A stretch of 36,910 nucleotides of DNA from Deltaproteobacteria bacterium (GCA_034670305.1 JAXMNT010000067.1:1-36910); one strand, 5' to 3'; positions 8,988-28,093 are shown, counted from the stretch's first letter. A program made the numbers and translations. Notes: generated by a model from the letters alone, not told the origin.

Positions 8988-10502
8988 CTAGCCGATCCAG
9001 GCGGGGGCCGGCAGGTGCGTGGACGTGGTTTCGGCCTCGCCCGCTTCGCCCACTTCTCCCATCAGCGTGCGTCGCAGCTGCTCGGCGGTCTCGACGGGCA
9101 CGTAGCCGAGCCGCAGCGTGGCGCCGCCGGTGACGACCAGCTGCAGATGCCGCACCTTCGCGAAGCGGTCGAAGGGCGTGGCGTAGAGCGTGACGCACTG
9201 CACGCGATCGAAGGGAACCCACGCGCGGTAGATGCCGAGGATGCCGAACCGCACCGCGAGGCAGCGCGCATCGGAGTCCACGAAGAACCCGAGTCGTCGG
9301 TGCGCGAGCAGGCCCGCGACGAGCGCCACCGTCGGCAACAGGGCGAGCACCGTGCCCGCGACGACCACCCGCCAACCGGCGTCCCCGCGAAGCAGCAGCG
9401 TGCCGGCCACCGCGCCCGCGAGCACCGTCGCGCGGAACGTCCAACGCCGCCACAGCGTGCCGGACGTGCGCGTATAGGGTGCGACTGGATCGACCCCCGG
9501 CACCACCAGCGGCACGATCGCTTCGGCGGCGGCGCGTGAGGTCGCGGGGATGAAAACGTCGACGCCGGTCTGCCGCGCCTTCGGGTCCAGCGCGCTGCCC
9601 GCGTTGTCGGCGCGCACCACGACCAGCCGCACCAGCCGGCGAAGCACCGACTGCTCGAGCCGGAGGATCTGCACGTAGCGTCGCGGCACCGCCTGCTCTT
9701 GCGTGGTGAGCAGTCCGTACTTTCGGCGGAACACCCCGTCGCGTTCGGTCAACGTGAAGCCCGCGAACTTCACCCACGTGAGCACGGCGCTGACGATCCA
9801 ACCGAGCGCCATGAACACGAAGACCGCGCCGGCGATGGCGACCACCGGACCCATGCGCGAGCCTTCCTGTTCGAGGTAGCGCAGCAGGACGATGAGCCCC
9901 TGCGCGCTTCGCTCGCGTCCGAACTCGGTCGCGGTGTTGAGCACGAGCAGCAGCGCCGCCACCACGAGCCCAGCCCGGTTGTTGGTGGCGCCGAGCAGCA
10001 GCAGTTCGAAGGGGCGGCTCCGGTGCAGCGGCGTTTCGTCGGCGACCGTCTCCGGCGCGCCCTTCTTTCCGAGCGCGGTGATGCGTTCGATCGCTTCGCG
10101 CAGGGTCTGCGCCTGGACAGGGGTGAGCGCATCGAGTTTCGCTTCGGCCCCGACGCTCGACGCGGTCTCTACCGAAACCGTCACCACACCGAGCACCCGG
10201 CGAAGCAGCGTGCGCGTCTGCGCGAGATCGTGGATGCGGTCGAGCTGGATGCGCCGCTCCCGCCGCACGAGCACCCCGCTCGTGATCTCCAGCGCTTCGT
10301 CGGTGAGTCGGTACCGAAAGCGAAGGTACTCGAGGATCGAGTACCCGATCGTGACCGCCGCGAGCGCCAGGTACAGCCCCGCCTCGACCGAACGCTGGTA
10401 CAGCATCACCGCGAGCAAGAGCCCGATCTGCGGCACCTGGTCCGAGATCCGGAGCACGATCGAGCGCGGATCCAACCGACCTTCGACAAGCACCTCCGCC
10501 AT
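8988..10502 (-). CDS. YdbT-like membrane protein with bacterial PH (bPH_2) domains (504 aa)
   Basis: [32 protein letters not shown]...[17 protein letters not shown], with two more such units separated by TM pairs. It lies downstream of a YdbS-like gene. Confidence 0.88.
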
Positions 10503-10513
10503 CGCCCGCGCCC

Positions 10514-11494
10514 CTAGGTCTTCCCCCACCGGTCCGCGAGCGGCGAGACGGGTTCGGTTTCGGCAGCGGTTTCGGCAGCGGTTTCGGCTTCGGTTTCGGC
10601 TTCGGCTTCGGTTTCGGTTTCGGCTTCGGCTTCGGCTTCGGCTTCGGGATCGGCTTCGGTTTCGGCTTCGGCTTCGGTTTCGGCTTCGGCTTCGGGATCG
10701 GCTTCGGTTTCGGCTTCGGCTTCGGTTTCGGCTTCGGTTTCGGCTTCGGCTTCGGCTTCGGGGTCGGTTTCGGCTTCGGCTTCGGCTTCGGCTTCGGAAT
10801 CGGGCGAGGGTACGCCAGCAGCATCGGGCAAGGGCAAGGGCACGGGCACGGCATCCGCCCCCGCATCGCGCACGGCCACCTCCGGCGCGCCCCATCGATC
10901 CTCGTCGGACAGCGGCGCCTGTTCCTCCGCACTCGGCAGCGCCCCCGCCCCCGCCGCAGCCTCGATCGGCTGCGCGGCTTCCGCCGGCTCCCCGTCGATG
11001 CCCGCCTGCGAGATCAGCCGCGCTCGAAGTGCCACCGCCACCTCATCCGCCAGCCCAGGAAGTTCAAAGGTCGCCGCGCGTCCGCCGGCGGTGAACACCT
11101 TGAGGTGCGCGAGCCCGAACCACCGCTCGATCGGCCCGCGCTCGACGTCGAGGTGCTGCATGCGCTGCACCGGAATCGACTTCTCGCGGTGAAACACGAT
11201 GCCCTGTTTGACGTGCAGCACTCCGTCCGCGAGCCGGTACCAAAACCGCCGGTACCGCATCCCGCTCGTGACGATGGTCCAGAGGCTGGTCACGAGCGCG
11301 AACAGGCCGACCGCTCCGATCAGCCCCCAGCTCAGCTCCGCGGATTCCTCCTCGCGCAGCCAGATGGGCACGAGCGATGCCACGGCGACGATGATCAGGA
11401 GCAGCACCCGCGGAAGCGCCGCCAGGCGCCAGTAGGTGACCACCCGGCGGTCGAGTTGCACGAAGTCGGGGTGCGGGAGGGGAGAAGGTTCCAA
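10514..11494 (-). CDS. YdbS-like membrane protein (bPH_2) with a long acidic repeat-derived C-terminal tail
   Basis: YRRFWYRL...[45 protein letters not shown] after two TM helices; tail of (EA/ET)n. The TTG start at 11494 is inferred. Confidence 0.85.
10551..10853 (-). repeat. Composite microsatellite: short (GCCCTT/GCCCGT)n then about 40 copies of GCCGAA/ACCGAA, read on the minus strand
   Basis: The plus strand shows (CGGCTT/CGGTTT)n at 10551-10803 and GGGCAAGGGCAAGGGCACGGGCAC at 10826-10849. Confidence 0.95.
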
Positions 11495-11584: not shown

Positions 11585-12376
<792 letters not shown>

Positions 12377-12829: not shown

Positions 12830-12865
12830 GGGGTGGAAGTGTAGAGCACAGGCCCGTGCCCGTTG

Positions 12866-13064
12866 GCCTTGCCCGTAGCCCTTCTTGCCCTTGCCCTTGC
12901 CCTTGCCCTTGCCCTTGCCCGTGCGGTTCGAAGCCGAAGCCGATCCCGAAGCCGAAGCCGAAGCCGAATCCGAAGCCGAAGCCGAAGCCGAAGCCGAATC
13001 CGATCCCGAAGCCGAAGCCGAAGCCGAATCCGATCCCGAAGCCGAAGCCGAATCCGAACGCCGA
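12866..13064 (+). repeat. Composite microsatellite: (GCCCTT)n at 12866-12920 then (GCCGAA/TCCGAT)n at 12929-13064
   Basis: Directly visible hexamer arrays with the same order of units as the 10551-10853 tract, but on the opposite strand. Confidence 0.95.
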
Positions 13065-13081
13065 CCCCCATCTGCCGGTCT

Positions 13082-13143
13082 GCGCCCCTTCTCGCGGAGG
13101 TTGGCTGGCCCGATGGATGGTCCAGCGTAGCTGTCGGCGGGGC
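13082..13143 (+). repeat. Conserved-core dispersed repeat, copy 1 (direct repeat of 22625-22685)
   Basis: GCGCCCCTTCTCG (13 nt identical) plus TGGCCCGATGGATGGTCCAGCGTAGC-N-GTCGGCGGGGC (37/38 identical to 22648-22685). Confidence 0.9.
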
Positions 13144-13235
13144 GGCGCCTCAAGGAGGCCTTCGGCCCGGCGCCTTCGCGCCGCTTCGCTGGCGCGCTTC
13201 GCGCTTGCTCGTCCTTGACCCGCCACCCCGCCGAC
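13133..13235 (+). other. Multibranch hairpin (REP-like or structured leader RNA) upstream of the four-helix-bundle gene
   Basis: GTCGGCGGGGCGGCG (13133-13147) pairs with CGCCACCCCGCCGAC (13221-13235), and TCAAGGA (13150-13156) pairs with TCCTTGA (13212-13218). The interior holds several CTTCG-capped hairpins. Confidence 0.65.
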
Positions 13236-13297
13236 CACTGGGGGCGCTGCGCGCCCTCGGGCGAGTTCACGCTCGGCGTACACAAGGCAGGTTCTCG

Positions 13298-13609
13298 ATG
13301 CTGGTATTCGACAAGTCGCTTCTCCTTCTCTCGCTTCTCGTCCGTGAGGTCTTGCCTCGCATTCGCGAGGCCTCGCTGAAGTCGCAGCTGCGGCGGGCCG
13401 CGCAGGCTGTTCCTCTACTGATTGCGGAGTCTCGGAGTGCGCGGGGTGCGAGGAACCCGGATGGGTTCTCGCGGGCGCTTGGCGAAGCGCGCGAGGTAAA
13501 GGCCGCCCTGCAGGTCGCGGCGGTCATGGGGTACGTCGAGGCGGGGGCGGACGTGTACGACCTCGCGGACCACGTCTGCGCGATGTTGTTCAAGCTGAGT
13601 CGGTCGTAG
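13298..13609 (+). CDS. Four-helix-bundle protein (23S rRNA IVP / Avd-like family, 103 aa)
   Basis: LKSQLRRAAQAVPLLIAES...FSRALGEAREVKAALQVA...DHVCAMLFKL matches the family pattern 'L.dQlrRAa.Sv.lNiAEG...f..A.GSa.Ev...L..a'. The SxxxNIAEG and GS positions are diverged. Confidence 0.82.
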   Translation: MLVFDKSLLLLSLLVREVLPRIREASLKSQLRRAAQAVPLLIAESRSARGARNPDGFSRALGEAREVKAALQVAAVMGYVEAGADVYDLADHVCAMLFKLSRS

Positions 13610-13721
13610 GCGACGTGGGCGGTGCGTCTCTGGACGCACCGCCCTATTCCCATCCCGTCGACGCTGGTTTCCGATTTTTGGGGATCCGTAGATCTCGTCG
13701 CGCGTATACCCTCGCCGACCC

Positions 13722-16274
13722 GTGGTTGATCCCGTCCGACTGCACCGCTTCGATGGCCTAGACCGCTACGCGGTGGTCTCCGTTGAACCGGCGAGCGATC
13801 CGTCTCAGCGCATGGTGCGGGTGGCGCGCGGACCGAGCTCCTCGAAGCTGACGGGCGGTTCGACCTTCGGACCCTATCCGGCGGCCGAGGTCCAGCAGCC
13901 GTTCGGGCTCGCGGTGCAGCAGCTGCTGGACGAAGGGTTCTCGAAGATCATTCCTGGTTGGGACTTGATCGCGCAGCTCGACTCCGGGGCCCCGTCCGAG
14001 CGGGCGCGCGCGGCGGTGCGCATCGGCTGGCGTCGACGCGACGACGTGGTGCCGAAGCTGCTCGCGTTGGCCGAGTCCGCGTTTGCCGCCAACCGCGGCG
14101 AGGTGTGTTCGTTCGTGGACGCCCTCGGCCTCATCGGCGACAAGCGCGCCATCGATCTCGCGCGCCGGATGGCCGAACGGAAGAACCTCTCCCGCCGCCG
14201 TTCGGGGGTGGAGGCGCTCCGCAACCTCGGCGACACCGAAGGGCTCGCGCTCGCGCGGCAGCGCGGATTCGACCGGCTGCCGCCGACCGTCAAGACGGTC
14301 ATGGCGGATCTCGACGAGACGAGCGAACAAAGCGCGCAGCTCAAGACGTTGCTCGACGCCGTGCGCGGCTGCGATGCGCGCCGGTTCGGGTTGATCGCCG
14401 ACGTGCTCTACGAAGCGGGCACACCCGTCACGGTCGCTGCCGCGCGCCGGGTACTGACCTTCAGCAAACTCGGCCGGCCGCACATCTGGCGCTACGCCAA
14501 GAGCGTGCTCCGTCGGGCGATGCTCCGCCGCGACGTGAAGACCTTCGGCTACATCGCACACGCGGTCGAACTCGAGAGCCGCGGCAACAAGGGCACCACC
14601 GCGTTGCTCAAGTCGGGACTCGACGGGCAGAAGAAACACCTCTCGGTCTTCCGGGTCGACACGCAGGAGTACGTCAAACGCGCGTGCTGGCGATTCCTCC
14701 GCGACCTCGCGGTTTGGGAACCTCAGAAGTACGCCCGCGCCTGCGCTGAAGTGCTCGTGCACTACACCACCCAGGACGTGCAGATGCCGAAGGGCTTCGT
14801 GCCCGCGACGGGCCGCGCGTACCTGCTCGGGCGCATCGTGCGCGGCAAGAGCAAGCGCATGAAGCTGCGCGGCACCATCTGGCGCTACCGCAACCACGCG
14901 TCGACCAAGCCGCCGCCGGCTGGCGTGCGCGAAGAGTCGTATCCGGAGCTCTGGGATGCGGGCCGCGAGGCGTATCTGCGGGTGCTCAGCGGCGCGAAGC
15001 TGCCCGAGGTGTTCGCCTTTGGTTTTCAGGGGCTGTTGCGGCACCCCGACATCCTCGAACACGCGACCACCAAGCAGCTCGTGCAGTTGCTCGAGACCGA
15101 TCCATCCATGACCGCGGGCACCCCGCTCGTCGATTTGGTCGTGAAGGAACTCGACCGCCGCTTCGACCCCGCGAAGCCTGATCTGAAGTTGCTCTTTCGT
15201 TTCGCCGCGAGTCCTTCGAGCAGCCGGCCCGAGGTGCGCAAGGTGCTGGTCGGCTGGATCGATCGCAGCGTTTCGTTCTGGTCGAAGGACGAACAGGCGG
15301 TGTTCTCGCTGCCGCTCGCGGTCGATGGTGCGGTGCGCGCTGCGGTTGTCGAAGCCCTCTCCAGAAGTTTCGAAGGGGACGCGGCGCTGCGGGCGGCGTA
15401 CGCGCCGGGCTTCCTCGCCATCCTCCAGAAGCCGGAAGCGACGCCCGGACAGTACGCGGCGTTCGCTGCGATCGCGCGCCGCTCGCTGCTCGCCGAACTC
15501 GGCGCGAAGCTCGACATGGACGCGCTGATGACCTGGCTCGACGAAGGTTCGTCGAGCGGCCGTTCGGTCGCGGGTGCGATCCTCGGCATTCGACCCGGCG
15601 CGCTGCAAGCGCTCGGCATGGAACGCATCGTCGCCATGGCGGACGACGAGATCGCCGCAGTGCGTGGCGCGGCGCACGCGCTCCTGCGCTCGGCGCTCGA
15701 TCAGCTGCGCGAGGATCCGTCGGTGCTCTTCGCGCTCGCGGAGTCGATCTGGGACGACACCCGCAAGGTGGTCTTCCAGCTGCTCACCGACGAGATCGAT
15801 CTCATCGCGCTCGGGCTGCCGGGGCTCATCGGGCTGTGCGACTCGAGCGATCCCGTGGTCGAAGCGCTGGGCCGCGAGCTGGTGGTGAAACACTTCGATG
15901 CGCTCGACGCCGAAGAGGTCCTCTACCGCCTGAGCGAACACCCGAGCCAGAAGATGCAGGCGTTCGCCCTCGGGCTCATCCGGGACCATCTGCGCCCGGG
16001 CTACATCCCGCTCGCGCGCCTCGAAGGGTTCTTCCGCGCGGTGCTCTTCGATGTGTCTCCGTCGCGTCCCATCAAAGACGGCGTGCTCGGCCTGCTCCTT
16101 CACCGGGGCCGGATCGAAGAACGGCAGGCGGAGTTCGCCGCGCAGATCCTCGGGGACCTGCTCCGCACCCACACCCAGTACGACTTCGACTACGTCGCGT
16201 CCGCGCTCGCCCAGCTCCAGACGCTCCATCCTTCCGTGTCCACCGACCTTCAGCTCAAGAAGGCCAGCGCATGA
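13722..16274 (+). CDS. Retron-associated HEAT/ARM-repeat protein with a divergent WGR-like N-terminus (850 aa)
   Basis: HEAT-like units (SERARAAVRIG, RRRSGVEALRNLGD, AVRGAAHALL, SIWDDTRKVVFQLL). The N-terminal beta-rich segment ends PFGLAVQQLLDEGFS, like the WGR C-terminal helix. Its stop overlaps the next start (ATGA). Confidence 0.8.
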   Translation: MVDPVRLHRFDGLDRYAVVSVEPASDPSQRMVRVARGPSSSKLTGGSTFGPYPAAEVQQPFGLAVQQLLDEGFSKIIPGWDLIAQLDSGAPSERARAAVRIGWRRRDDVVPKLLALAESAFAANRGEVCSFVDALGLIGDKRAIDLARRMAERKNLSRRRSGVEALRNLGDTEGLALARQRGFDRLPPTVKTVMADLDETSEQSAQLKTLLDAVRGCDARRFGLIADVLYEAGTPVTVAAARRVLTFSKLGRPHIWRYAKSVLRRAMLRRDVKTFGYIAHAVELESRGNKGTTALLKSGLDGQKKHLSVFRVDTQEYVKRACWRFLRDLAVWEPQKYARACAEVLVHYTTQDVQMPKGFVPATGRAYLLGRIVRGKSKRMKLRGTIWRYRNHASTKPPPAGVREESYPELWDAGREAYLRVLSGAKLPEVFAFGFQGLLRHPDILEHATTKQLVQLLETDPSMTAGTPLVDLVVKELDRRFDPAKPDLKLLFRFAASPSSSRPEVRKVLVGWIDRSVSFWSKDEQAVFSLPLAVDGAVRAAVVEALSRSFEGDAALRAAYAPGFLAILQKPEATPGQYAAFAAIARRSLLAELGAKLDMDALMTWLDEGSSSGRSVAGAILGIRPGALQALGMERIVAMADDEIAAVRGAAHALLRSALDQLREDPSVLFALAESIWDDTRKVVFQLLTDEIDLIALGLPGLIGLCDSSDPVVEALGRELVVKHFDALDAEEVLYRLSEHPSQKMQAFALGLIRDHLRPGYIPLARLEGFFRAVLFDVSPSRPIKDGVLGLLLHRGRIEERQAEFAAQILGDLLRTHTQYDFDYVASALAQLQTLHPSVSTDLQLKKASA

Positions 16275-17962
16275 AGGTCCAGTTCAAGTACGCCGGCAGC
16301 TCCGGCATCGTCAGCGATCTCTCGAAGTCGCGGGTCGCGTTCGCGACCAACATGCTGCGCGAGCCGAGCTACCTCGAAGCGCAGCTCGCCCGCCCCCTCA
16401 TCGCCCGCGAGGGACTGGCCGCCCTGCATGCGGTGGTGGTCAGCGACTTCAAGTACCGGCCCAAAGACCGGCTCGAGTTCCAGGCCTGGCTCGAAGAGCA
16501 GGACCGGAAGTTCCTCGCGTCGCTCGCGCTCAAGAGCGACGACATCCGCCAGCGGATCGAAGCCAAAGAAGCGCGCCTCGAGGAGCTGCGCGCGCTGCGG
16601 CGCCAGCGCCGCAAACCGTTCATCGACGCCCGCCGCAAATACTTCGAGTACGTCTACGAGAACCAGTACGAGCTCGACTACTTGCTCGACCCGGTCATCA
16701 CGATCCACCCGGACGAGATCGCGTTCGAAGCGTTCAGTCTGGACGAGTCGAGCTATGGGCGACTCGCGCTCAAGTACGATCTGTTCAAGAAGATCGACTC
16801 GTTCGAGTGCGGCACGACGAATGTCGACTTCTCCGCGCGCCTCGCCCAACACGTGGCGCGGCTCCGCAGTTACCGCGACACCCGCTTCGATGTCTCGCCG
16901 AGTGGGTTCACGATCGCGAGCGACGACGTCGCGCACAAAGAGAAGAAGATCGATCTGCCCGAGTCCTGGGTGAAGGGCTTTCACCAGGTCCAGAGCGTGA
17001 TGGCGATGAGCCTCGACCGGCTGCGTCTGGCGCCGATCGATCTGTTCAACCTCATCCGCCACGTGAAGCGCTACAAAGCGCGGACCTCGCCGCGCGCGCT
17101 TCGGTGGGAGCTCACGCCCGGGCAGCCGGCGTGTGTGGTCTTCGAACCCTGGGAGCACAAGATCCAGCTCTCCCCGACGGCGGTCTACGAAGGCCCGAAG
17201 CCGGTGAAGATCCGGACCTGGGGCCGGCGCCGGCTGCTGGTGCTCGAGCGGCTTCTGCACCGATGTGAGAAGGTCGATGTGTTCTTGGCCGGCCACGGCT
17301 TGCCCACCATCTACGTGTGCGACCTCGGCGACGCGACCTTCACGCTCGGCCTGAGCGGCTGGACCGACAACGACTGGACCGGCACGAGCCCGTTCTCGCT
17401 GCTCGAACAGAAGATGGACGTCGACGCGGACGCGCTCAGCACGACCTACCACGGCCTGCGCGAACCCCGGTACGCGACCGCACAGGCGCTCGCGGATCAG
17501 ACGGGCCTCGGGCTCGAGACCACCCGCAGCTCGCTCTCGCTGCTCTGTCAGGCGGGGCGCGCGATGTTCGACCTCGGCGGCGGCGTGTACCGCCACCGCG
17601 ATCTCTTTCACTTCCCCTTCGACGCGAAGAAGGAAGTGGTGAAGCTCAAGAAGCAGGCCGAGGACGACAACCCGAAGGCGAAAGAGGCGCGGAAGATCTT
17701 CGAAGCCGGCGACGCCCGCATCATCGCGCGGCGCCCGCTCATGGGTCAGGCCGACAAACCGGGCTTCAAGCTCAGCGGTTCGGTGCGCGGCAGCGAAGGT
17801 CGGATGCGTCCGCAGCTGCACGTCGCCGACGACGGCTCGATCATCAGCGCGAAGTGCACCTGCACGTACTACAAGAAGTTCAAGCTCACCAAAGGCCCGT
17901 GCGAACACGTACTGGCCCTCCGGCTCGCCCACATGGAACGGCTGGAAGGGGAGGGCGCATGA
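16271..17962 (+). CDS. Retron-associated SWIM zinc-finger protein (563 aa)
   Basis: C-terminal CTC-x12-CEH (AKCTCTYYKKFKLTKGPCEHVLAL); DPVITIHPDEIAFEAFSLDESSYGRL and GTTNVDFS blocks; possible HTH near AQALADQTGLGLETTRSSLSLL; ATGA coupling with the upstream gene. Confidence 0.88.
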   Translation: MKVQFKYAGSSGIVSDLSKSRVAFATNMLREPSYLEAQLARPLIAREGLAALHAVVVSDFKYRPKDRLEFQAWLEEQDRKFLASLALKSDDIRQRIEAKEARLEELRALRRQRRKPFIDARRKYFEYVYENQYELDYLLDPVITIHPDEIAFEAFSLDESSYGRLALKYDLFKKIDSFECGTTNVDFSARLAQHVARLRSYRDTRFDVSPSGFTIASDDVAHKEKKIDLPESWVKGFHQVQSVMAMSLDRLRLAPIDLFNLIRHVKRYKARTSPRALRWELTPGQPACVVFEPWEHKIQLSPTAVYEGPKPVKIRTWGRRRLLVLERLLHRCEKVDVFLAGHGLPTIYVCDLGDATFTLGLSGWTDNDWTGTSPFSLLEQKMDVDADALSTTYHGLREPRYATAQALADQTGLGLETTRSSLSLLCQAGRAMFDLGGGVYRHRDLFHFPFDAKKEVVKLKKQAEDDNPKAKEARKIFEAGDARIIARRPLMGQADKPGFKLSGSVRGSEGRMRPQLHVADDGSIISAKCTCTYYKKFKLTKGPCEHVLALRLAHMERLEGEGA

Positions 17963-18015
17963 TCCCTGTTCAGCAGCCCACTCGGAAGGAGGCGCGCACG
18001 ATCGAGTAGCGACCA

Positions 18016-18269
18016 GTTCGAAGGATCGGGAGGACGTGTCGGCGGGAGCCGTTTAGCAACCCGCGTGGCGTTACGCCGCGCATGCCCCATCGCACGTCAA
18101 CCGTCACGAGTCCGTTCGTCACCACGGGAGCAAGCGCCCCCAGGCCCATTGCTGGTTTGAGACCTCCGGTCTCCTGGGCCGGCGGGGGCGCCTGCTCCCA
18201 TTCAGTGGAACGGCCTCGTCGCAGAGAGAGCGTAGACAACTGTCGACACGTCCTCCGGATCCTTCGAAC
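18016..18269 (+). ncRNA. Retron msr-msd non-coding RNA
   Basis: a1/a2 inverted repeats at 18016-18043 and 18242-18269 (26/28 Watson-Crick, 1 G-U, 1 mismatch); msr stem-loop at 18063-18081; long msd hairpin at 18106-18219. It ends 22 nt before the RT start. Confidence 0.88.
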
Positions 18270-18291
18270 CCGCGCTCACGCGCAACACCCC

Positions 18292-19680
18292 ATGAGCGGC
18301 AAAGACGACAAGAAGAAGCTGTACGAAGAGATCGTCGCGAACACCGACGACGCGATGTTGCTCGACCGGATGACCGATCTCGGTTTCTGGAGCTACGGCG
18401 ACGACATCCCGGACGACCCGGCCGACGAAGCCAAGGAGTGGAACGAACTCGAGTACGAGATCGCGAAGCTTCGGAAGAAGTCCGCCGTCGTCGCCGATCC
18501 GCAGAAGGCGCTGGCGGCGGAGCGGGTCCGGCGCTGGAACGAGTCCAAGACCCGGCGCGCCAAAGCCAAGATCGAACGCGACATCGCCAAGAAGGAGCGC
18601 CGCCAGAAGTGGGAAGACTTCAAGGCGACGCGGCTCGTCACGGCGGGGCACCCCGAGGTGTCGGCCGGGCTCGAGCCGAACCCCAAAGACGCACCGAAGT
18701 GGCTGCCGGGGCTTCCGCAGATCGCCACGCCCGAAGCGCTCGCGACCGCGCTCGGTCTCACAATCGGCCGGCTGCGCTGGTTGACCTTTCACCGCAAGAC
18801 CGCGGCGCTCGTGCACTACCACCGCTTCGAGATCCCGAAGAAGACCGGCGCACCGCGGCTGATCAGCGCACCGAAGAAATCACTCAAACAGGCGCAAGGG
18901 TGGATCCTCCGAGAGATCCTCGAACGCGTGCCGACCGAAGCACCGGCGCACGGCTTCGTGAAGACCAAGAGCGTGAAGACGAACGCGTTGCCCCACGTGA
19001 AGCAGCGCGTGGTGTTGAACCTGGATCTCCAAGACTTCTTTCCCTCGCTCGGTTTTCGACGCGTGAAGGGCCTCTTCCACAAGGGGCTCGGTTATCCAGA
19101 GCCGGTCGCGGTCGTGCTCGCGCTGCTGTGCACCGAACCGCCGCGGGTCGAAGCCGAGCTCGACGGCAAAGTGTTTCACGTCGCGCTCGGCGACCGGGTG
19201 CTGCCCCAGGGCGCGCCCACGAGTCCTGCGATCACCAACCTCGTCTGCCGGCGGCTCGACCGGCGGCTCGGCGGTCTCGCGAAGTCGCTTGGGTTCGCGT
19301 ACACGCGCTACGCGGACGACCTGACCTTCAGCGGGGAACACCGCGGCAAGGTGGGGCGGCTCCTGAAGGCCGTGCGCGACATCGTGCCGGAGGAGGGGTT
19401 CAAGATCCGTGAAGACAAGACCCGCGTGATGCATCGAGGCCGGCGCCAGGAAGTCACCGGCGTCTCGGTGAACCACGCGGTGGCGGTGCCGCGGACCGAA
19501 CGCCGCTTGCTCAGGGCGATCCTCCGGAACGCGAAGAAGTCCGGCAGCCTCGCGTCGCAGAACCGCGCGCAGCACCCGAAGTTCCGGGAGCACCTGACCG
19601 GCCGCATCGCATGGGTCGCCATGGTCGAACCGCGGCACGCAGTGCCACTGCTCGAGATGCTCAAGACCATTCCGGACTAG
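18292..19680 (+). CDS. Retron reverse transcriptase with a Mx162-like N-terminal extension (462 aa)
   Basis: IPKKTGAPRLISAP, AHGF, region X NALPH, LDLQDFFPSL, LPQGAPTSPAITN, YTRYADDLTFS, region Y RQEVTGVSVN; about 140-aa charged helical N-terminal extension. The ATG at 18292 was chosen because the upstream in-frame part is the ncRNA. Confidence 0.95.
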   Translation: MSGKDDKKKLYEEIVANTDDAMLLDRMTDLGFWSYGDDIPDDPADEAKEWNELEYEIAKLRKKSAVVADPQKALAAERVRRWNESKTRRAKAKIERDIAKKERRQKWEDFKATRLVTAGHPEVSAGLEPNPKDAPKWLPGLPQIATPEALATALGLTIGRLRWLTFHRKTAALVHYHRFEIPKKTGAPRLISAPKKSLKQAQGWILREILERVPTEAPAHGFVKTKSVKTNALPHVKQRVVLNLDLQDFFPSLGFRRVKGLFHKGLGYPEPVAVVLALLCTEPPRVEAELDGKVFHVALGDRVLPQGAPTSPAITNLVCRRLDRRLGGLAKSLGFAYTRYADDLTFSGEHRGKVGRLLKAVRDIVPEEGFKIREDKTRVMHRGRRQEVTGVSVNHAVAVPRTERRLLRAILRNAKKSGSLASQNRAQHPKFREHLTGRIAWVAMVEPRHAVPLLEMLKTIPD

Positions 19681-20840
19681 TCCAACTTGGCGAGTCGTTC
19701 CTTCGCGGCTTTCCGAACGCCCGCGTCCTTGGCGCGCGACAGAAGCTCGAGCTTCTCCCGGAACGCGGGAAGGTCCGCGGGCTCCGGATCCGCGACTCGA
19801 CCGATTTCGTTTGCGACTCCCATGCGCACGTTCTTCTCCTCGGCCGCTGCGAAGCGGTGCAACAGCTCGAGCGCTTCGACGGCGCCCACATGCCGAAGCA
19901 TCGTGCGGAGCGCCGCCTGTCGGTGGCCTGGGTACGGTGACCCGAGCACTGCCTCGAGCGCCGTTCGAATCTCGTCGAACGGGAACACGCCCGCGGCGAC
20001 GGCGATCGCATGGTAGTTGGGTGCGTCCTTCTCGAGCTCCTCGCGCAGCCGAACGCGCACTCGATCCGGAAGGCCGGCTTTGGAGTTCAGACTGCTCATC
20101 CAACAGTACACGTCGATGCCGCGGTAGCGCAGTCCGGTCTGCCGGATCACCTCGTCGTAGAGCCAGTCGGGTGCCTTGCTCAGCTCGCGCAGTTGGGTGA
20201 CCGAGTTCACCCCCAGCAGCGCGGTGGGACAGACCTTCGCGATGCCCGCGTCGATGGTGTGACGCACGGGGAGATGCTTCACGTAGGGCAGCGACTCGTG
20301 GAAGCTGCGCAGCCAGAGCGTCAGCAGGGTGAGGAACGTGTCGGGCCACGGGTCGGTTGAGCGGACGCGTTTCACGTACTTCGGGATCTCTCGCGGGGCG
20401 AGCGTTCGACCCGACTTCACCGCCTCCGACCCCGCGTACGTGGCCAGGATCTGACTGTCCCAGACCATCTTCTTCTTGGGGATGCGCCGAATCTCGGCCG
20501 CCGCGAGCGCGCTGGCCGCCAAGTGACGGACCCGCTCGGCCCCGTCCTCGAGGAGCGTCTGAAACAACGGGCCGAGCAGCTTGGTCGGCAGCACGCCTGG
20601 GTGCCGTCCGTCGCCGACCTCCGCGCCGTCGGCTTCGTCCAGCCGGCCCACCACCGCGACCCGCACCGCTTCGTCCGGGTGCTCCGCCAAATGCGCGAGG
20701 ACGGCCACTTCGTCCTTCTTGTGCAGATCGAGCGCGCCCAGCGCCGCCACGGCTTCGCGCGTCGCGTCGTCGAGCAACGCGTCCAGCTGCGCCCGCACCG
20801 CGGCCATCCGTTCCCCGTAGTGCTTCTTCTGCTTCAACAT
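19677..20840 (-). CDS. HEAT-repeat-containing protein (387 aa)
   Basis: HPDEAVRVAVVGRL, GAERVRHLAASAL, EEKNVRMGVANEIG and KDAGVRKAAKERL. The start is 20840 or 20852. Its stop overlaps the RT stop in CTAG. Confidence 0.75.
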   Translation of the reverse strand: MLKQKKHYGERMAAVRAQLDALLDDATREAVAALGALDLHKKDEVAVLAHLAEHPDEAVRVAVVGRLDEADGAEVGDGRHPGVLPTKLLGPLFQTLLEDGAERVRHLAASALAAAEIRRIPKKKMVWDSQILATYAGSEAVKSGRTLAPREIPKYVKRVRSTDPWPDTFLTLLTLWLRSFHESLPYVKHLPVRHTIDAGIAKVCPTALLGVNSVTQLRELSKAPDWLYDEVIRQTGLRYRGIDVYCWMSSLNSKAGLPDRVRVRLREELEKDAPNYHAIAVAAGVFPFDEIRTALEAVLGSPYPGHRQAALRTMLRHVGAVEALELLHRFAAAEEKNVRMGVANEIGRVADPEPADLPAFREKLELLSRAKDAGVRKAAKERLAKLD

Positions 20841-21029
20841 CGTGGCGCCCATCGTACGTTTGTCGCCTGCCCCTGCCGCGAAAGTCCAGCGAGCTCTTGG
20901 CCGCCGCCGAGCTCCCTGGGCCGGCCATGTGGGCGGGGTGATCGCTCGGGACCGAAACGTGTTCTCGGCCGGGACGGGCGTGCGCTGACCGATTCGGCCC
21001 ACGAAATCCCGCGCCGCTGGGAAAGAGCC

Positions 21030-21038
21030 TGGTATTCT
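21030..21038 (+). promoter_or_regulatory. Extended -10 promoter element (TGGTATTCT) for a probably leaderless transcript
   Basis: TGn-TATTCT lies 7 nt before ATG 21046, with no SD. Confidence 0.55.
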
Positions 21039-21045
21039 CCGCGCC

Positions 21046-21633
21046 ATGGCGGTGTTTCGGCTGCGCTACGGCGCGCGCGAGGTCCATCTGCCGCTCGGCA
21101 AATTCACGATCGGCCGCGCGGCGGATTGTACGTTGCGGATTGACGATCAGTGGCTCTCCCGCCACCACGCGATCCTGCGCGTGGAGGTCGACAAGGTCGC
21201 CATTCGGGACGCCGGCTCGCGCAACGGGATCCTGATCAACGGCATCCCCATCCAGACCACCCGGTACCTGGTCGGGGGCGACCGCATCCGCCTCGGAAGC
21301 CATGAGCTGACGCTGCTGCGCGACGATGGTGTGGCGGCCCGCGCGTCGGACGAGACCCGGGACGACCTCCAGATGCTTCGCTCCGCGCCACCGCCCCAGC
21401 CGAACAACGGCGGTCCGCCGCCACCCGACGTGCTGAGCCCGCGCGAGCGAGAAGTGCTCGAGCTGCTTGCGGCCGGGCACACCCAGCGCGAGATCGCGGA
21501 GCGCATCGGGGTGGGCACGAAGTCGGTCGAGACGTACCGCTCCCGGGTGGCCGAGAAGCTCGGCATCAAGTCGCGGGCCGAGCTCGTGCGCTACGCGCTC
21601 CTGCACGGTCTGCTCCGCCCGCCAAAGACGTAG
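21046..21633 (+). CDS. FHA domain + LuxR-type HTH transcriptional regulator
   Basis: FHA motifs IGR, LSRHHA, DAGSRNG and GDRIRLG; LuxR LSPREREVLELLAAGHTQREIAERIGVGTKSVETYRSRVAEKLG. Confidence 0.93.
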   Translation: MAVFRLRYGAREVHLPLGKFTIGRAADCTLRIDDQWLSRHHAILRVEVDKVAIRDAGSRNGILINGIPIQTTRYLVGGDRIRLGSHELTLLRDDGVAARASDETRDDLQMLRSAPPPQPNNGGPPPPDVLSPREREVLELLAAGHTQREIAERIGVGTKSVETYRSRVAEKLGIKSRAELVRYALLHGLLRPPKT

Positions 21634-22709: not shown

Positions 22710-24488
22710 CTACTGCCGGCGGAGGGCGTCGACCAGGGTGTTGAGTTGTTCGCGGATCCGGATGATGCGGTCGGGATCCTGTTCTTCGAGCGCGCTTCGG
22801 AACACCGCGATCGCGTGGCCGAGCTCTTCGCGCGGGGCGCCGGTGAGCTGGGTGTAGAGCGCGTCGGCGCGCGCCAACGTCGTCCGGTTCGGGAGCGTGT
22901 CGCGCGGGTGGAACTTGTACGCCTTCATCGCTTCGCGTGCTTTGGCGATGTCGTCTTTGCTCAGTTTGCCGGGCGCGCGTTCGATGACGAGGTGTTCGAC
23001 GCGGTCGCTGTCCACGAGCGACATCTCGACTTCGAGGATGCCGTTCAGATCGTAGGTGAACCGCACATCGATGGCCGCGGCGCCCGCGGACCCCGACGGC
23101 ATGTCTTTGACGACGTACTCGCCGAGGAAGGTGTTGTCTTTGCAGAGGCTGTGTTCGCCTTGGTAGATGGCGACGCGGATCTCTTTCTGCTGGTCGTTCA
23201 TGGTGAAGAACCGCTGCGACCGGCTCGCCGGGATCGTCGTGCCGCGTTCGAGCACGGGCGAGTAGAGCCCTTCGATCTGCTGGCGGCCCATCAAGGTGGC
23301 CGTCGCAATGCCCATCGAGAACGGCGCCACATCCGTGACGATCATGTCCTCGACCGCGACGTCCCCGCCCTTGAGCGCGGCCTGAACCGCGGCGCCCATG
23401 GCGACCGCTTCGTCCGCCGGCAGATCCCGCAGTGGCAGCCGTCCGAAGAGCTGCGCCGCCAGGTCGGTCACACACGGCATGCGGGTCGCGCCACCGACGA
23501 GCAGCACTTCTTGGATGTCCTTGGCCTCGAGCTGTGCGTCGCGAAGTGCGCGCAGCACCGGCGCGCGAAGCCGCTCGAGCAGCGAGCGCCAGATGCCTTC
23601 CGCTTCGTCGCGGGTGAACACCCGGTCGACGTCGATGGTCTTCTCGCCGAGCACGAGCCGCGGCACGACCAGGCGCGCTTCGGTCTCGTCGGTGAGGCGG
23701 CGTTTGGTGTCGTCGGCCGCGACGAGCAGACGGGTGTAGGCGCGCAGATCTTCTTCCGCGTCGAAGCCGTGCGCTTCTTTGAGCTCTTCGACGACCTTGT
23801 CCGCCAGCGCTTCGGCGAAGTCTTCGCCGCCGAGGCGGGCGTCGCCCGCGGTCGACTGGATCTCGATGACCCCTTCGATGATCTCGAGCACCGTGACGTC
23901 GAAGGTGCCGCCGCCGAGGTCGAGGACCACCGCCTGCATCTCCTTGTCCCGGTTGTGCAGCCCGTACGCCATCGCCGCCGCCGTCGGCTCGTTGATGATG
24001 CGTTCGACTTTGAGGCCAGCGATCGCGCCCGCGTCGCGGGTGGCCTGCCGCTGCAGATCGCCGAAGTACGCCGGCACCGTCACGACCGCTTCCGAGATCT
24101 TCACGCCGAGCGCGGCTTCCGCGTCGCGTTTGAGGGACTCGAGCACCAGCGCCGACAGCTCCTGGGGTCGAAGCTCTCGTCCCGCGATGGTGATCTTCTT
24201 GTCGGCGCCCATGTCGCGTTTGAAGAACACCGCGGTCTCTTCGGGATGGGTGACCAGCCGCGCGCGGGCCGCGGCGCCGACCAGGACTCGTCCGTCGTCG
24301 TCGAAGCTCACGGCACTCGGGGTCAGTAGTTCGCCGAGCGCGTTCGGAAGCACGAGCGGTTTGCCGCCCTGCATCACCGAGACGAGCGAGTAGGTCGTGC
24401 CGAGATCGATGCCCACGACCACGCCGACGCCCACCGGCGGGTCGGGGGTGTCAGGGTTCTTCTTGTGGAGTGGGATGACCGTCGACAT
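22710..24488 (-). CDS. hscC: Hsp70-family chaperone HscC
   Basis: GIDLGTTYS, TVPAYF, INEPTAAA, DLGGGTFD, LLVGGATRMP, and the HscC-type RFTYDLNGILEV and KFHPRD...NR C-terminus. It sits next to a DjlB-like J-protein gene. Confidence 0.88.
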   Translation of the reverse strand: MSTVIPLHKKNPDTPDPPVGVGVVVGIDLGTTYSLVSVMQGGKPLVLPNALGELLTPSAVSFDDDGRVLVGAAARARLVTHPEETAVFFKRDMGADKKITIAGRELRPQELSALVLESLKRDAEAALGVKISEAVVTVPAYFGDLQRQATRDAGAIAGLKVERIINEPTAAAMAYGLHNRDKEMQAVVLDLGGGTFDVTVLEIIEGVIEIQSTAGDARLGGEDFAEALADKVVEELKEAHGFDAEEDLRAYTRLLVAADDTKRRLTDETEARLVVPRLVLGEKTIDVDRVFTRDEAEGIWRSLLERLRAPVLRALRDAQLEAKDIQEVLLVGGATRMPCVTDLAAQLFGRLPLRDLPADEAVAMGAAVQAALKGGDVAVEDMIVTDVAPFSMGIATATLMGRQQIEGLYSPVLERGTTIPASRSQRFFTMNDQQKEIRVAIYQGEHSLCKDNTFLGEYVVKDMPSGSAGAAAIDVRFTYDLNGILEVEMSLVDSDRVEHLVIERAPGKLSKDDIAKAREAMKAYKFHPRDTLPNRTTLARADALYTQLTGAPREELGHAIAVFRSALEEQDPDRIIRIREQLNTLVDALRRQ

Positions 24489-27898: not shown

Positions 27899-28044
27899 GC
27901 CAGGCGCGGTGGAGCAAGTCCGCTTGGGGAACAGAGGCGGGTGTGAGAGCGTAGGACTCGAGTGCGGATGGGGGACGAACGCCGAGGTTTTCGGGGTTCA
28001 AGCGAATCCGGCCACCAGCTGCCGGCACCGTTCCCAAGGTGCGG

Positions 28045-28073
28045 GGAACTTTTGGGGTCGGAGACCGGTCGGA
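28045..28073 (+). promoter_or_regulatory. Putative ECF (sigmaE-type) promoter
   Basis: GGAACTT, then 16 nt, then GTCGGA, followed by SD GAGGAG (28083-28088) and ATG 28094. Confidence 0.55.
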
Positions 28074-28093
28074 CGACCGGCAGAGGAGCGACG

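Follow-up and report, generated by a model that had tools for sequence, protein, structure and literature searches.

A type XIII retron in a deltaproteobacterial genome and its probable link to PARP and Macro genes

Studied retrons such as Ec86/Eco1, Ec78 PtuAB, Ec67, Eco8, and Ec83 consist of a reverse transcriptase (RT) and its msDNA accompanied by accessory proteins, and the RT-msDNA is expected to restrain an effector, following a guard logic. In these five systems the effector is a TOPRIM protein, an ATPase-nuclease, or a protein resembling nucleoside deoxyribosyltransferases; none of them is known to employ a PARP, a clamp-like fold, or HEAT and SWIM proteins as a pair. Type XIII retrons have already been described (Mestre et al. 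2020), and include Retron-Mxa1/Mx162, Mxa2/Mx65, Sau1/Sa163, and Nex2/Ne144. As presented there, the type is defined by an RT clade, by a HEAT/ARM protein with a WGR-like start that precedes a SWIM protein, and by an ncRNA between the SWIM and RT genes. The SWIM protein carries a CxCx12CxH motif and an acidic motif, Dx7Dx4Ex30-32Dx37E, which was regarded as possibly transposase-derived. The words 'parp', 'macro', and 'adp-ribos' are absent from the main text of that paper and from a 2026 SPIRE survey. In the literature searched (supplements and author manuscripts were outside its scope), neither a PARP/Macro link nor a clamp fold was found for type XIII. Likewise, no experimental test of a defence role was found in that literature, nor any paper resolving the mechanism, which a preliminary description of the present DNA had given as unresolved.

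The locus considered here lies in a contig of a Deltaproteobacteria bacterium (GCA_034670305.1 JAXMNT010000067.1:1-36910), and the whole stretch analysed, of 36,910 nucleotides, is referred to as the window. Judged by its sequence, the interval 13722-19680 is almost certainly an intact type XIII retron of the Mx162 family, which was discovered in myxobacteria, and is made up of a HEAT scaffold, a SWIM protein, an msr-msd RNA, and an RT (Table 1). All four parts are on one strand and at the expected positions, and the ATG of the SWIM gene overlaps the stop codon of the HEAT gene as ATGA (16271-16274); both the co-orientation and the coupling had been noted in the preliminary description. Its claim of a complete type XIII retron also holds, as PADLOC profiles assign the HEAT, SWIM, and RT proteins alike to this type (RT_XIII, 1.7e-155; WGR_XIII, 1.1e-97; SWIM_XIII and HEAT-ARM_XIII as in Table 1), with scores showing that the four-part arrangement exceeds chance. 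In its RT clade, SWIM motifs, ncRNA position, and HEAT protein, the locus is like type XIII as given in the main text of Mestre et al. (2020). It probably belongs to the Mx162 subclade, given that Myxococcaceae loci share its close group.

Table 1. Coordinates of the retron, Macro, and PARP features in the window
Feature	Position	Strand	Details
PARP-type ADP-ribosyltransferase	750-2231	-	WGR, PARP regulatory, and catalytic domains; probable displaced cassette member
Macro-domain protein	11585-12376	+	263 aa; Pfam Macro 2.3e-07, Macro_2 4.4e-07
HEAT/ARM-repeat partner	13722-16274	+	GTG start, 850 aa; PADLOC HEAT-ARM_XIII 4.7e-87; degenerate WGR-like N-terminus, ~residues 1-75
SWIM partner	16271-17962	+	563 aa; PADLOC SWIM_XIII 1.4e-179; Pfam SWIM E 3.8e-04
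Retron ncRNA (msr-msd)	18016-18269	+	inverted repeats, fold, covariation, profile
a1 arm	18016-18045	+	ncRNA
Branching G candidates	G18046, G18056	+	ncRNA
Conserved TTAGCAA motif	18053-18059	+	ncRNA
msr hairpin	18063-18081	+	ncRNA
msDNA template	~18090-18239	+	inferred
Long msd hairpin	18106-18219	+	ncRNA
a2 arm	18240-18269	+	ncRNA
Retron RT	18292-19680	+	462 aa; charged N-terminal extension of ~140 aa; Pfam RVT_1 E 7.9e-21

The gap between the SWIM and RT genes (17963-18291, 329 nt) had been described as having the size and architecture of a retron ncRNA, and this reading is upheld. A 26-nt inverted repeat, 96% complementary (18016-18041 and 18244-18269, with a spacing of 202 nt), encloses a 36-nt imperfect hairpin (18106-18141 and 18184-18219). 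The gap RNA folds at -148.3 kcal/mol, compared with an average of -107.3 for shuffled sequences (z -7.84), and 0/200 shuffles are as stable. An RNAalifold consensus of 27 sequences contains 35 pairs, with compensatory changes in 27. Among the 80 fetched loci, of which 26 are close to the window and 54 belong to a more distant clade, an nhmmer core profile is found at 69, and its match in the window covers 18052-18221 (E 3.5e-27). Furthermore, for 55 of the 74 ncRNA copies, the flanking a1/a2 stems score above every one of 50 shuffles. The RT is thus adjacent to an ncRNA in which a1/a2 repeats enclose msr hairpins and a long msd hairpin, the arrangement that characterizes retrons; Rfam contains no family matching it.

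The RT carries the motifs NALPH (231-235), YADD (340-343), and VTG (388-390), as had been anticipated. Its start is placed at 18292, even though the ORF is open from 18082, because the alignments of relatives begin near residue 5, counted from the Met at this position. By profile score, the top PADLOC matches are all retron RT profiles, in agreement with the earlier placement of the enzyme among retrons; RT_XIII is the best, at 516.6 bits vs. 388.6 for the next profile, RT_other (1.4e-116). The best solved relative is the retron Ec86 RT (8e-41), and the identity to the RTs of close loci is 49-56%.

In the SWIM protein, the CxCx12CxH zinc-finger motif is found at residues 529-546 and the acidic motif occurs in its exact form at residues 140-224, with D140, D148, E153, D186, and E224 being invariant in 44/44 sequences. 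The main text of Mestre et al. (2020) considers this motif transposase-like, whereas in the model obtained here the region has a DNA-clamp fold. In the AlphaFold2 model (pLDDT 80.6, pTM 0.72), the two-domain beta-alpha-beta arrangement of clamps is present. Foldseek matches listed from the PDB are all PCNA, sliding-clamp, or 9-1-1 structures (best E 5.8e-10, with TM on target mostly 0.6-0.76), and the named matches listed from BFVD are all PCNA, beta clamp, or processivity factor, so that two independent structure libraries concur on a clamp fold for the predicted model. By contrast, a transposase of RNase H-like fold finds no support in the structure matches: the motif is present, but no transposase or RNase H fold is among the matches listed from either library. 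Searches with Pfam, NCBIfam, and PDB profiles gave no nuclease match. In the layout suggested by the model, a PCNA-like DNA-clamp fold takes up approximately residues 34-57 and 140-365 and is interrupted by a helical insert (64-131); a winged helix (about 386-442) and then the SWIM zinc finger come after it. Within the clamp, helices are predicted to be basic and a strand region acidic, the mean net charge over 44 sequences being +4.7 for helix 255-278, +3.8 for helix 315-331, and -4.9 for strands 142-185. Nevertheless, a profile of the same 44 sequences finds no clamp among its matches to PDB sequences (best E 0.68), and consequently the protein is said to fold like a clamp rather than to be a member of the PCNA family. 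The five invariant acidic residues are not accounted for by this fold and could form a catalytic site.

A true homologue of the SWIM protein (99.9% probability by hhalign, E 2.1e-31) is encoded in RT-less SWIM + DUF6493 pairs of Streptomyces linear plasmids. It keeps the acidic residues, and its gene is overlapped by that of a large partner. These pairs differ from the present locus in lacking an RT, in their reversed gene order, and in a SWIM protein without exactly the helical insert (about residues 60-130), an absence that favours the predicted clamp layout; between the 877-aa partner and the HEAT protein of the window, homology could not be detected. The E. coli yeh locus (YehF WGR, YehI DUF4132, YehQ SWIM) was ruled out by hhalign as a homologue of the pair, with probabilities of 0.8% for SWIM against YehQ, through the zinc-finger motif only, and 0.1% for HEAT against YehI.

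The HEAT protein had been labelled WGR-like/HEAT. The HEAT part of the label stands, with Pfam HEAT_2 at residues 82-167 (E 2.1e-07), while the WGR-like part is its weak point, since Pfam WGR is found in 0/49 members of the close family. PADLOC WGR_XIII spans residues 526-848 only, and a relative with a true WGR aligns, from about residue 50 on, through no more than the C-terminal half of that domain. The AlphaFold2 model (pLDDT 93) begins with four strands and a helix and is predicted to continue as a long solenoid; by fold it resembles generic HEAT solenoids, at a TM of about 0.2. In distant relatives, where Pfam finds WGR in 5/10 and BRCT in 1/10, the N-terminal module is predicted to be a true WGR domain and, in one of them, a BRCT domain. 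In general, the HEAT and SWIM partners both look like DNA- or protein-binding scaffolds, and the two-effector reading of the preliminary description is putative, as is a defence role.

The preliminary description required homologues of the two partners to be linked to RTs elsewhere, and this is the case. RTs accompany HEAT-SWIM in 60/80 loci, or 60/70 where the flank suffices to judge; all of these RTs share the strand of the pair, 56 following it (4 of them truncated where the contig ends) and 4 preceding it. In close loci, full-length HEAT relatives adjoin SWIM. Moreover, PARP and Macro genes are found upstream, in the same strand and order, in 18/26 close loci, and the order PARP-Macro-HEAT-SWIM-ncRNA-RT is seen in 18/20 close relatives with enough upstream sequence. 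The remaining close loci comprise two where PARP and Macro are absent despite at least 4.4 kb upstream (L003, L005), five without upstream sequence, and one with Macro truncated by a contig end (L015). By record title, the 18 loci with the full order span at least four phyla, with Myxococcota, Planctomycetota, Acidobacteriota, and a Lysobacterales genome. Comparison of gene order shows that, in the clade of the window, the retron appears as the downstream half of a six-part block. Outside it, with three reference loci, the only ORFs common to at least three other loci were an ADP-ribosylglycohydrolase beside the block, an ADP-ribosylglycohydrolase-type ORF running into NAD-ligase domains in L013, a second PARP-like gene (L002), and a Pfam-less ORF of L006 (8 loci). 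With so few ORFs shared, the common gene order is not plain synteny. The ADP-ribosylglycohydrolase adjoins the block in 12 close loci, being followed by NAD-dependent DNA ligase domains in 2; none was found in the window. The 54 loci of the distant clade have HEAT/WGR, SWIM, and RT only and lack Macro as well as any cassette-type PARP, so the retron there works without these two, and L004 and L026 keep PARP-Macro-HEAT-SWIM while RT and ncRNA are both absent, so this block can exist without a retron nearby.

In the window itself, the orthologous PARP is 55-63% identical to those directly upstream of Macro-HEAT-SWIM in the 18 loci, and the Macro protein is 51-72% identical to the product of the gene between PARP and HEAT, a range that also includes the L015 copy. 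The PARP gene is inverted and lies upstream, 9 kb from Macro and 11.5 kb from the HEAT gene; at this distance and on the other strand, co-regulation is not evident. Its ORF is open to 2369, with the conserved start, M47, at 2229-2231. Pfam recognizes PARP (2.3e-26), PARP_reg (2.5e-16), and WGR (3.7e-07), and the H-Y-E triad (H412, Y451, E520) is invariant in 14/14 aligned sequences. Among solved structures, the closest are the PARP4 catalytic domain (1.3e-44) and PARP2 from WGR to catalytic domain (residues 72-506, 3.4e-27). The Macro gene and the HEAT gene downstream of it are separated by 1.35 kb, a spacer that in relatives measures about 100-300 nt and here contains an insert with an unrelated four-helix-bundle gene. 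Relatives of the Macro protein align to residues 1-201, and its best solved relative is yeast 1njr (1.8e-08). These two genes bear on the earlier suggestion that, with no nuclease or NADase in either partner, the effector chemistry may be new. This is not supported as written, because the SWIM acidic motif had already been flagged as possibly transposase-derived in the main text of Mestre et al. (2020), and because the interval then described does not reach upstream as far as the conserved Macro and NAD-using PARP partners.

With its H-Y-E catalytic domain, WGR, and regulatory helical domain, the window PARP is like the eukaryotic clade-1 PARPs (PARP1/2/3) and PARP4. DNA breaks activate PARP1-3 through WGR, and DNA-dependent activation of the window PARP is assumed. 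It differs from the eukaryotic PARPs in its bacterial origin, in having neither zinc fingers nor BRCT, and in being encoded, in relatives, alongside a retron. According to Perina et al. (2014), H-Y-E is kept in most bacterial PARPs and one is described as active. The proximity of an ADP-ribose writer to a macrodomain possibly erasing its mark also recalls the toxin-antitoxin logic of DarT-DarG pairs. Nevertheless, the writer here belongs to the PARP family instead of DarT, Macro is a separate gene resembling yeast YMR087W, and the toxin role is putative.

A functional link of PARP and Macro to the retron in this clade is probable. The best explanation of the whole, a type XIII retron of a PARP/Macro-linked clade with msDNA-gated ADP-ribosylation, has about an even chance of being right, and its gating step, in which a clamp-like SWIM/HEAT complex holding msDNA gates NAD-dependent ADP-ribosylation, is put forward tentatively. 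From the msd of the ncRNA, the RT would make a hairpin msDNA, some 150-160 nt long and attached to the msr RNA through a branch, and the HEAT scaffold and the clamp-like SWIM protein would bind RT-msDNA. As long as msDNA is intact, the 2′,5′ branch would conceal its 5′ end, and the PARP, of WGR-HD-catalytic type, would be off. Phage or other damage that degrades, debranches, or modifies msDNA would turn PARP on through WGR-type sensing; it would then use NAD+ to ADP-ribosylate protein or nucleic-acid targets, with growth arrest (abortive infection) as a result. The Macro protein would reverse or read the ADP-ribose mark, limiting self-harm, and in other genomes the ADP-ribosylglycohydrolase may supplement it. 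Weighing against this explanation are the position of the window PARP outside the operon, the missing ADP-ribosylglycohydrolase, the retrons of the distant clade and of L003 and L005 that have neither PARP nor Macro, the L004 and L026 blocks without a retron, a clamp fold that is predicted and has no sequence match among solved clamps, the acidic residues that could be catalytic, and surroundings with neither a defence island nor a phage match.

Alternatively, the locus may be a chromosomal DNA-damage or DNA-end signalling module rather than an anti-phage system, with msDNA as a built-in DNA cofactor to PARP, Macro, the clamp-like protein, and a WGR/BRCT-type scaffold, joined in some genomes by ADP-ribosylglycohydrolase and NAD-dependent ligase. 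This is a fairly unlikely reading, but its domain vocabulary is that of break signalling and conservation is unusually strong, as SWIM is 49-60% identical across phyla and the ncRNA core is recovered by a sequence-only profile. In the main text of Mestre et al. (2020), type XIII correlates with host 16S at 0.78 and a non-defence role is raised. No phage match and no tRNA were found for the locus, plasmid matches among the 15 of 25 records listed are replicons of at least 490 kb, and no defence island surrounds it in the window, where 2/15 neighbours match PADLOC, both being generic Ser/Thr kinases. By contrast, the distribution is patchy, with at least 586 confirmed matches among 185,579 species genomes, and a near-identical architecture in unrelated phyla with otherwise unshared flanks fits a horizontally spread accessory system. 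RT and ncRNA losses, together with tandem ncRNA arrays, suggest rapid turnover. Also against it, all retrons of known function are, to our knowledge, defence systems.

The arrangement could also be a plain tripartite retron, as in Mestre et al. (2020), whose SWIM effector is a transposase-derived DEDE nuclease checked by RT-msDNA, with HEAT as adaptor and PARP and Macro as bystanders. The exact acidic motif, kept also in the RT-less Streptomyces relative, the distant clade that runs without PARP and Macro, and the position of the window PARP outside the operon all agree with this. However, the clamp matches listed from both structure libraries and the profile searches without a nuclease argue against such an effector, and chance neighbours would hardly keep one gene order (18/20) across at least four phyla, which makes this reading improbable. 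Finally, the displaced, inverted PARP and the insert before HEAT might indicate a decaying remnant, in which the rearrangement put the system out of action and left its other genes to drift. This is very improbable, as the six parts are full length, the five protein genes have no internal stop, the RT, SWIM, acidic, and H-Y-E motifs are intact, and the a1/a2 stem keeps its complementarity.

Under the preferred explanation, msDNA-gated ADP-ribosylation, the linkage to PARP and Macro suggests a chemistry that may be under the control of the long-unexplained Mx162 family. More broadly, and this is unlikely enough to be speculative, Mx162-type retrons, the founding retron family, could form the DNA-producing arm of a PARP signalling system in bacteria, with Macro and ADP-ribosylglycohydrolase as erasers, where msDNA would be the ligand shown to PARP by a PCNA-like clamp and a WGR/BRCT-type HEAT scaffold. 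If true, this would be the first retron with ADP-ribosylation as its output, and the system would parallel, in prokaryotes, the PARP-PCNA-BRCT break signalling of eukaryotes.

Four co-oriented parts, a HEAT gene, a SWIM gene, an ncRNA (msr-msd) and a reverse transcriptase (RT) gene, make up the locus at 13722-19680 (see table). PADLOC places the RT, SWIM and HEAT proteins in retron type XIII, with E-values of 1.7e-155 for RT_XIII, 1.4e-179 for SWIM_XIII and 4.7e-87 for HEAT-ARM_XIII; its WGR_XIII model also matches the HEAT protein (1.1e-97), confined to residues 526-848. The solved structures nearest to the RT are retron RTs, Ec86 being first (8e-41), and the RT gene is taken to begin at the Met at 18292 because alignments with relatives start at about the fifth residue counted from this Met, though the frame is open from 18082. 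The complete type XIII retron claimed in the preliminary description is therefore real and intact, and it is of a kind already known. What the locus adds to known type XIII is an apparent tie of its clade to ADP-ribosylation and the prediction of a clamp-like SWIM protein.

Features of the window, with coordinates on the forward strand
Feature	Position	Strand	Length	Remarks
PARP gene	ORF 750-2369; 750-2231 from conserved start M47	minus		WGR, PARP_reg and catalytic domains
Inverted hexamer tandem repeats	10501-10884 and 12917-13084			130-nt arms, up to 90% complementary
Macro gene	11585-12376			nearest solved structure yeast 1njr, 1.8e-08
Four-helix-bundle ORF	12863-13609
HEAT gene	from 13722		850 aa	GTG start; Pfam HEAT_2
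SWIM gene	ATG within 16271-16274		563 aa	ATG overlaps HEAT stop as ATGA; SWIM finger CxCx12CxH, residues 529-546
Gap between SWIM and RT genes			329 nt	holds the ncRNA
ncRNA arms	18016-18041 / 18244-18269		26 nt	96% complementary
ncRNA stem with G-U pairs	18016-18045 / 18240-18269
ncRNA core, profile match	18052-18221			E 3.5e-27
ncRNA short hairpin	18063-18081
ncRNA long imperfect hairpin	18106-18219
RT gene	18292-19680		462 aa	motifs NALPH, YADD, VTG; charged N-terminal extension of ~140 residues
HEAT_2 gene	19677-21047	minus		meets RT end to end; stops overlap, CTAG at 19677-19680
FHA-LuxR regulator	21046-21633
Hsp70-family gene, then ORF with weak DnaJ match	22710-26301	minus
Paralogous very large ORFs, VIT and TPR domains	27962-32608 and 32254-36789

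The linkage of these genes in other genomes was examined with a SWIM profile run against a species-genome collection, where at least 599 stretches matched and at least 586 were confirmed; 80 were kept as loci (L001-L080). An RT lies downstream of SWIM on the same strand in 56 of them (four of these cut by a contig end) and upstream, also on the same strand, in four more. Because an RT thus stands at 60 of the 80 fetched loci, the possibility raised in the preliminary description, that HEAT and SWIM homologues are not linked to RTs elsewhere, does not hold. Ten loci lack the RT although their flanks reach 5 kb or more upstream and 3 kb or more downstream: eight are cyanobacterial, and the other two, L004 and L026, come from Myxococcaceae. 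Another 10 are too short to judge. The ncRNA is still present in seven of the 10 RT-less loci; in cyanobacterial L034, L038, L040, L041, L043, L051 and L066 it lies beside SWIM with no RT in flanks of at least 5 kb upstream and at least 4.5 kb downstream, and the genes downstream in L040 are housekeeping ones such as PmbA/TldD and a methyltransferase. A Firmicutes version is found on a Clostridium butyricum chromid (L083); it consists of a gene of 978 aa, a homologue of SWIM and an RT, which overlap at their ends, and it has no SWIM-RT gap that could hold an ncRNA.

As judged from its sequence and its relatives, the gap between SWIM and RT has the architecture of a retron ncRNA. Its RNA fold has a z-score of -7.84, which none of 200 shuffles equals, and an RNAalifold consensus of 27 such regions, hand-picked from the loci with the clearest arms, contains 35 pairs, with compensatory changes in 27. 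By a sequence-only profile, the core is found in 69 of the 80 fetched loci; it was missed in L004, L010, L026, L029, L030, L052, L067, L073, L074, L076 and L080, four of which have less than 600 nt downstream of SWIM. The a1/a2 arm sequences vary between loci, and the stem that they form beats all 50 shuffles at 55 of 74 core copies, with a median score of 14 vs a control mean of 7.4. No Rfam family reaches its gathering score anywhere in the window, and none fits the gap, where only miRNA-like chance matches appear (E >= 0.63). The msDNA made from this RNA would be about 150-160 nt long. In six loci, at least two full ncRNA copies are present, several with distinct a1/a2 arms per copy; such tandem msr-msd arrays lie between SWIM and RT in L046 (8741-9694; period 256 nt, 3.8 copies, 75% matches), L001, L028, L034, L036 and L039.

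A fold resembling that of DNA clamps is predicted for the SWIM partner. Its AlphaFold2 model, built from 44 sequences (pLDDT 80.6, pTM 0.72), has at least 500 matches in the PDB at E <=0.001; among the matches listed, all are PCNA, sliding-clamp or 9-1-1 structures, the best E being 5.8e-10 and the TM on the target mostly 0.6-0.76. A library of viral predicted structures likewise returns PCNA, beta clamps and herpesvirus processivity factors, and no transposase or RNase H-fold protein is among the matches listed from either source. Judged by the order of secondary-structure elements, residues 34-57 and 140-365 seem to form the clamp-like fold, which a helical hairpin interrupts at 64-131; exactly this insert is missing from a homologue in Streptomyces (hhalign probability 99.9%). 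Mean charges over the 44 sequences are basic in the helix regions 255-278 (+4.7) and 315-331 (+3.8) and acidic in the strands 142-185 (-4.9), and the published motif keeps its five acidic residues (D140, D148, E153, D186, E224) in every one of the 44. By profile, SWIM matched nothing among the PDB sequences, solved clamps included; the resemblance is therefore a likeness of fold on a model, not family membership. NCBIfam has no family for either the SWIM or the HEAT protein, and the ESM Atlas contains no model of the SWIM protein, whose clamp region matches nothing there but clusters without a name, all below 0.9.

For the HEAT protein, the model (pLDDT 93) consists of four N-terminal strands and a helix followed by a solenoid, and the structures that it resembles in fold are generic HEAT scaffolds. 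A Pfam WGR domain is present in none of 49 close HEAT relatives vs five of 10 distant long ones, and the profile alignment of the HEAT protein with a WGR-bearing relative begins at residue 50 (profile column 53), within the WGR domain. One of the 10 distant relatives, P0237, carries a BRCT domain (1.8e-17) at the WGR site. DUF6493 was considered as a homologue and rejected.

The SWIM relatives fall into two groups. The close group (L001-L026, 26 loci) has SWIM proteins 49-60% identical to that of the window and full-length relatives of its HEAT protein, while the distant group (L027-L080, 54 loci) has SWIM proteins 36-42% identical and a longer partner of ~1030-1250 aa, which resembles the window HEAT protein only over residues ~520-850 of the latter. 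In the close group, PARP and Macro genes directly precede HEAT on one strand, giving the order PARP-Macro-HEAT-SWIM-ncRNA-RT. These genes are orthologues of window genes (PARP 55-63% identical, Macro 51-72%), and both are present in 18 of the 26 loci, whose titles name Myxococcota, Planctomycetota, Acidobacteriota and Lysobacterales. Among the other loci, Macro is cut at the contig end in L015, upstream sequence is at most 242 nt in L008, L010, L012, L020 and L023, and PARP and Macro are absent from L003 and L005 despite at least 4.4 kb upstream. The 54 distant loci all lack Macro.

Beyond the block, three reference loci have few ORFs that recur in at least three other loci; those that do comprise an ADP-ribosylglycohydrolase (ARH), the second PARP-like gene of L002 and an ORF of L006 without a Pfam family (eight loci). 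Twelve loci of the close group (L004, L006, L007, L009, L013, L017, L018, L019, L022, L024, L025 and L026) have the ARH next to the block; in L013 its frame continues into domains of an NAD-dependent DNA ligase, and L022 has such domains too. By gene order and conservation, the clade of the window retron is tied to a set of ADP-ribosylation writers and erasers. In L004 and L026, an upstream ARH and PARP-Macro-HEAT-SWIM occur without RT or ncRNA, and the block of L026 is followed by genes for a histidine kinase and a catalase. The second PARP-like type, with WGR and catalytic domains and without the regulatory domain, is found at L002:1-1473, upstream of the cassette PARP, and at L045:11150-12619, on the downstream side of a retron from the distant clade; these two copies share 68% identity.

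The PARP of the window was aligned with those of 13 loci, and H412, Y451 and E520 do not vary among them; L024 (a stop in the tblastn span) and L011, L016, L017 and L021 (partial matches) were left out. Among solved structures, the catalytic domain of PARP4 (1.3e-44) and the stretch of PARP2 from WGR to the catalytic domain (3.4e-27) come closest. The arrangement differs from that of the relatives. There, the spacers between PARP, Macro and HEAT measure from tens of bases to a few hundred. In the window, 1.35 kb separate Macro from HEAT, and an unrelated PK-repeat/four-helix-bundle gene lies in this interval; PARP, which is on the opposite strand, is 9 kb away from Macro, with a phosphoglucomutase gene, a bPH gene and two genes for Ser/Thr kinases in between. 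No ARH is present in the window. We take the window to hold a rearranged copy of the PARP-Macro block, and for this reason its PARP belongs only probably to the retron system. A search for repeats that might explain the inversion of PARP found coding hexamer repeats only. Inverted arrays of these flank Macro, at the start of the bPH gene and at that of the four-helix-bundle ORF, and read as Pro-Lys codons. Human PARP4 carries a VIT domain; the presence of two VIT ORFs in the same window as a PARP4-like PARP may be coincidence.

Two immediate neighbours, the four-helix-bundle gene and the HEAT_2 gene that converges on the RT, were weighed as possible members of the system and rejected, since neither occurs in any of the 80 loci. 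A defence island was also rejected, as PADLOC matches only two generic kinases among 15 neighbours. The G+C content per kb is high across the window (0.62-0.73) and lies at 0.64-0.69 in the locus, with no compositional break there; no tRNA is near the locus, and the phage collection gave no match. SWIM matches 25 plasmid records, the 15 listed being replicons of at least 490 kb. A scan of 13200-19900 returned no promoters and four terminators, vs 4.1 expected. The E. coli yeh locus (L081, K-12 2196474-2210944) has a similar theme, with WGR (YehF), DUF4132 (YehI), MoxR, VWA and SWIM (YehQ) genes; as a relative it was rejected, since it has no detectable homology to the retron partners.

Retrons were first found in myxobacteria in 1984, according to a review. 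Mestre 2020 defines type XIII and describes its acidic motif, winged helix and HEAT/WGR-like partner; the paper also reports that RT and HEAT proteins co-evolve, and a correlation of 0.78 with 16S. The terms 'parp', 'macro' and 'adp-ribos' do not occur in the main text of that paper or in the 2026 SPIRE survey. Perina 2014 describes 28 sporadic bacterial PARPs, seven with the regulatory domain and 27 keeping H-Y-E, and treats them as sporadic horizontal acquisitions; retrons are unmentioned in the passages covered. In the literature searched, which for retrons with PARP comprised the best 25 of 126 matches, we found no link of retrons to PARP or Macro or of SWIM to clamps, although the PARP link may have been noticed earlier in supplements or author manuscripts, and no explanation of the function of the myxobacterial type XIII family or of how its two partners act.

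If the PARP link were mere neighbourhood, the locus would be one more type XIII retron. With the conserved block taken as a true association, the tie to the ADP-ribosylation set and the predicted clamp fold together would give type XIII a testable mechanism, the mechanism itself being what we infer. The link to an intact PARP, Macro and often ARH would make the function directly accessible to experiment through NAD+ use, ADP-ribosylation and the catalytic triad. A clamp-like protein would join the known repertoire of retron partners, and the PARP link would give bacterial PARPs a concrete partner system.
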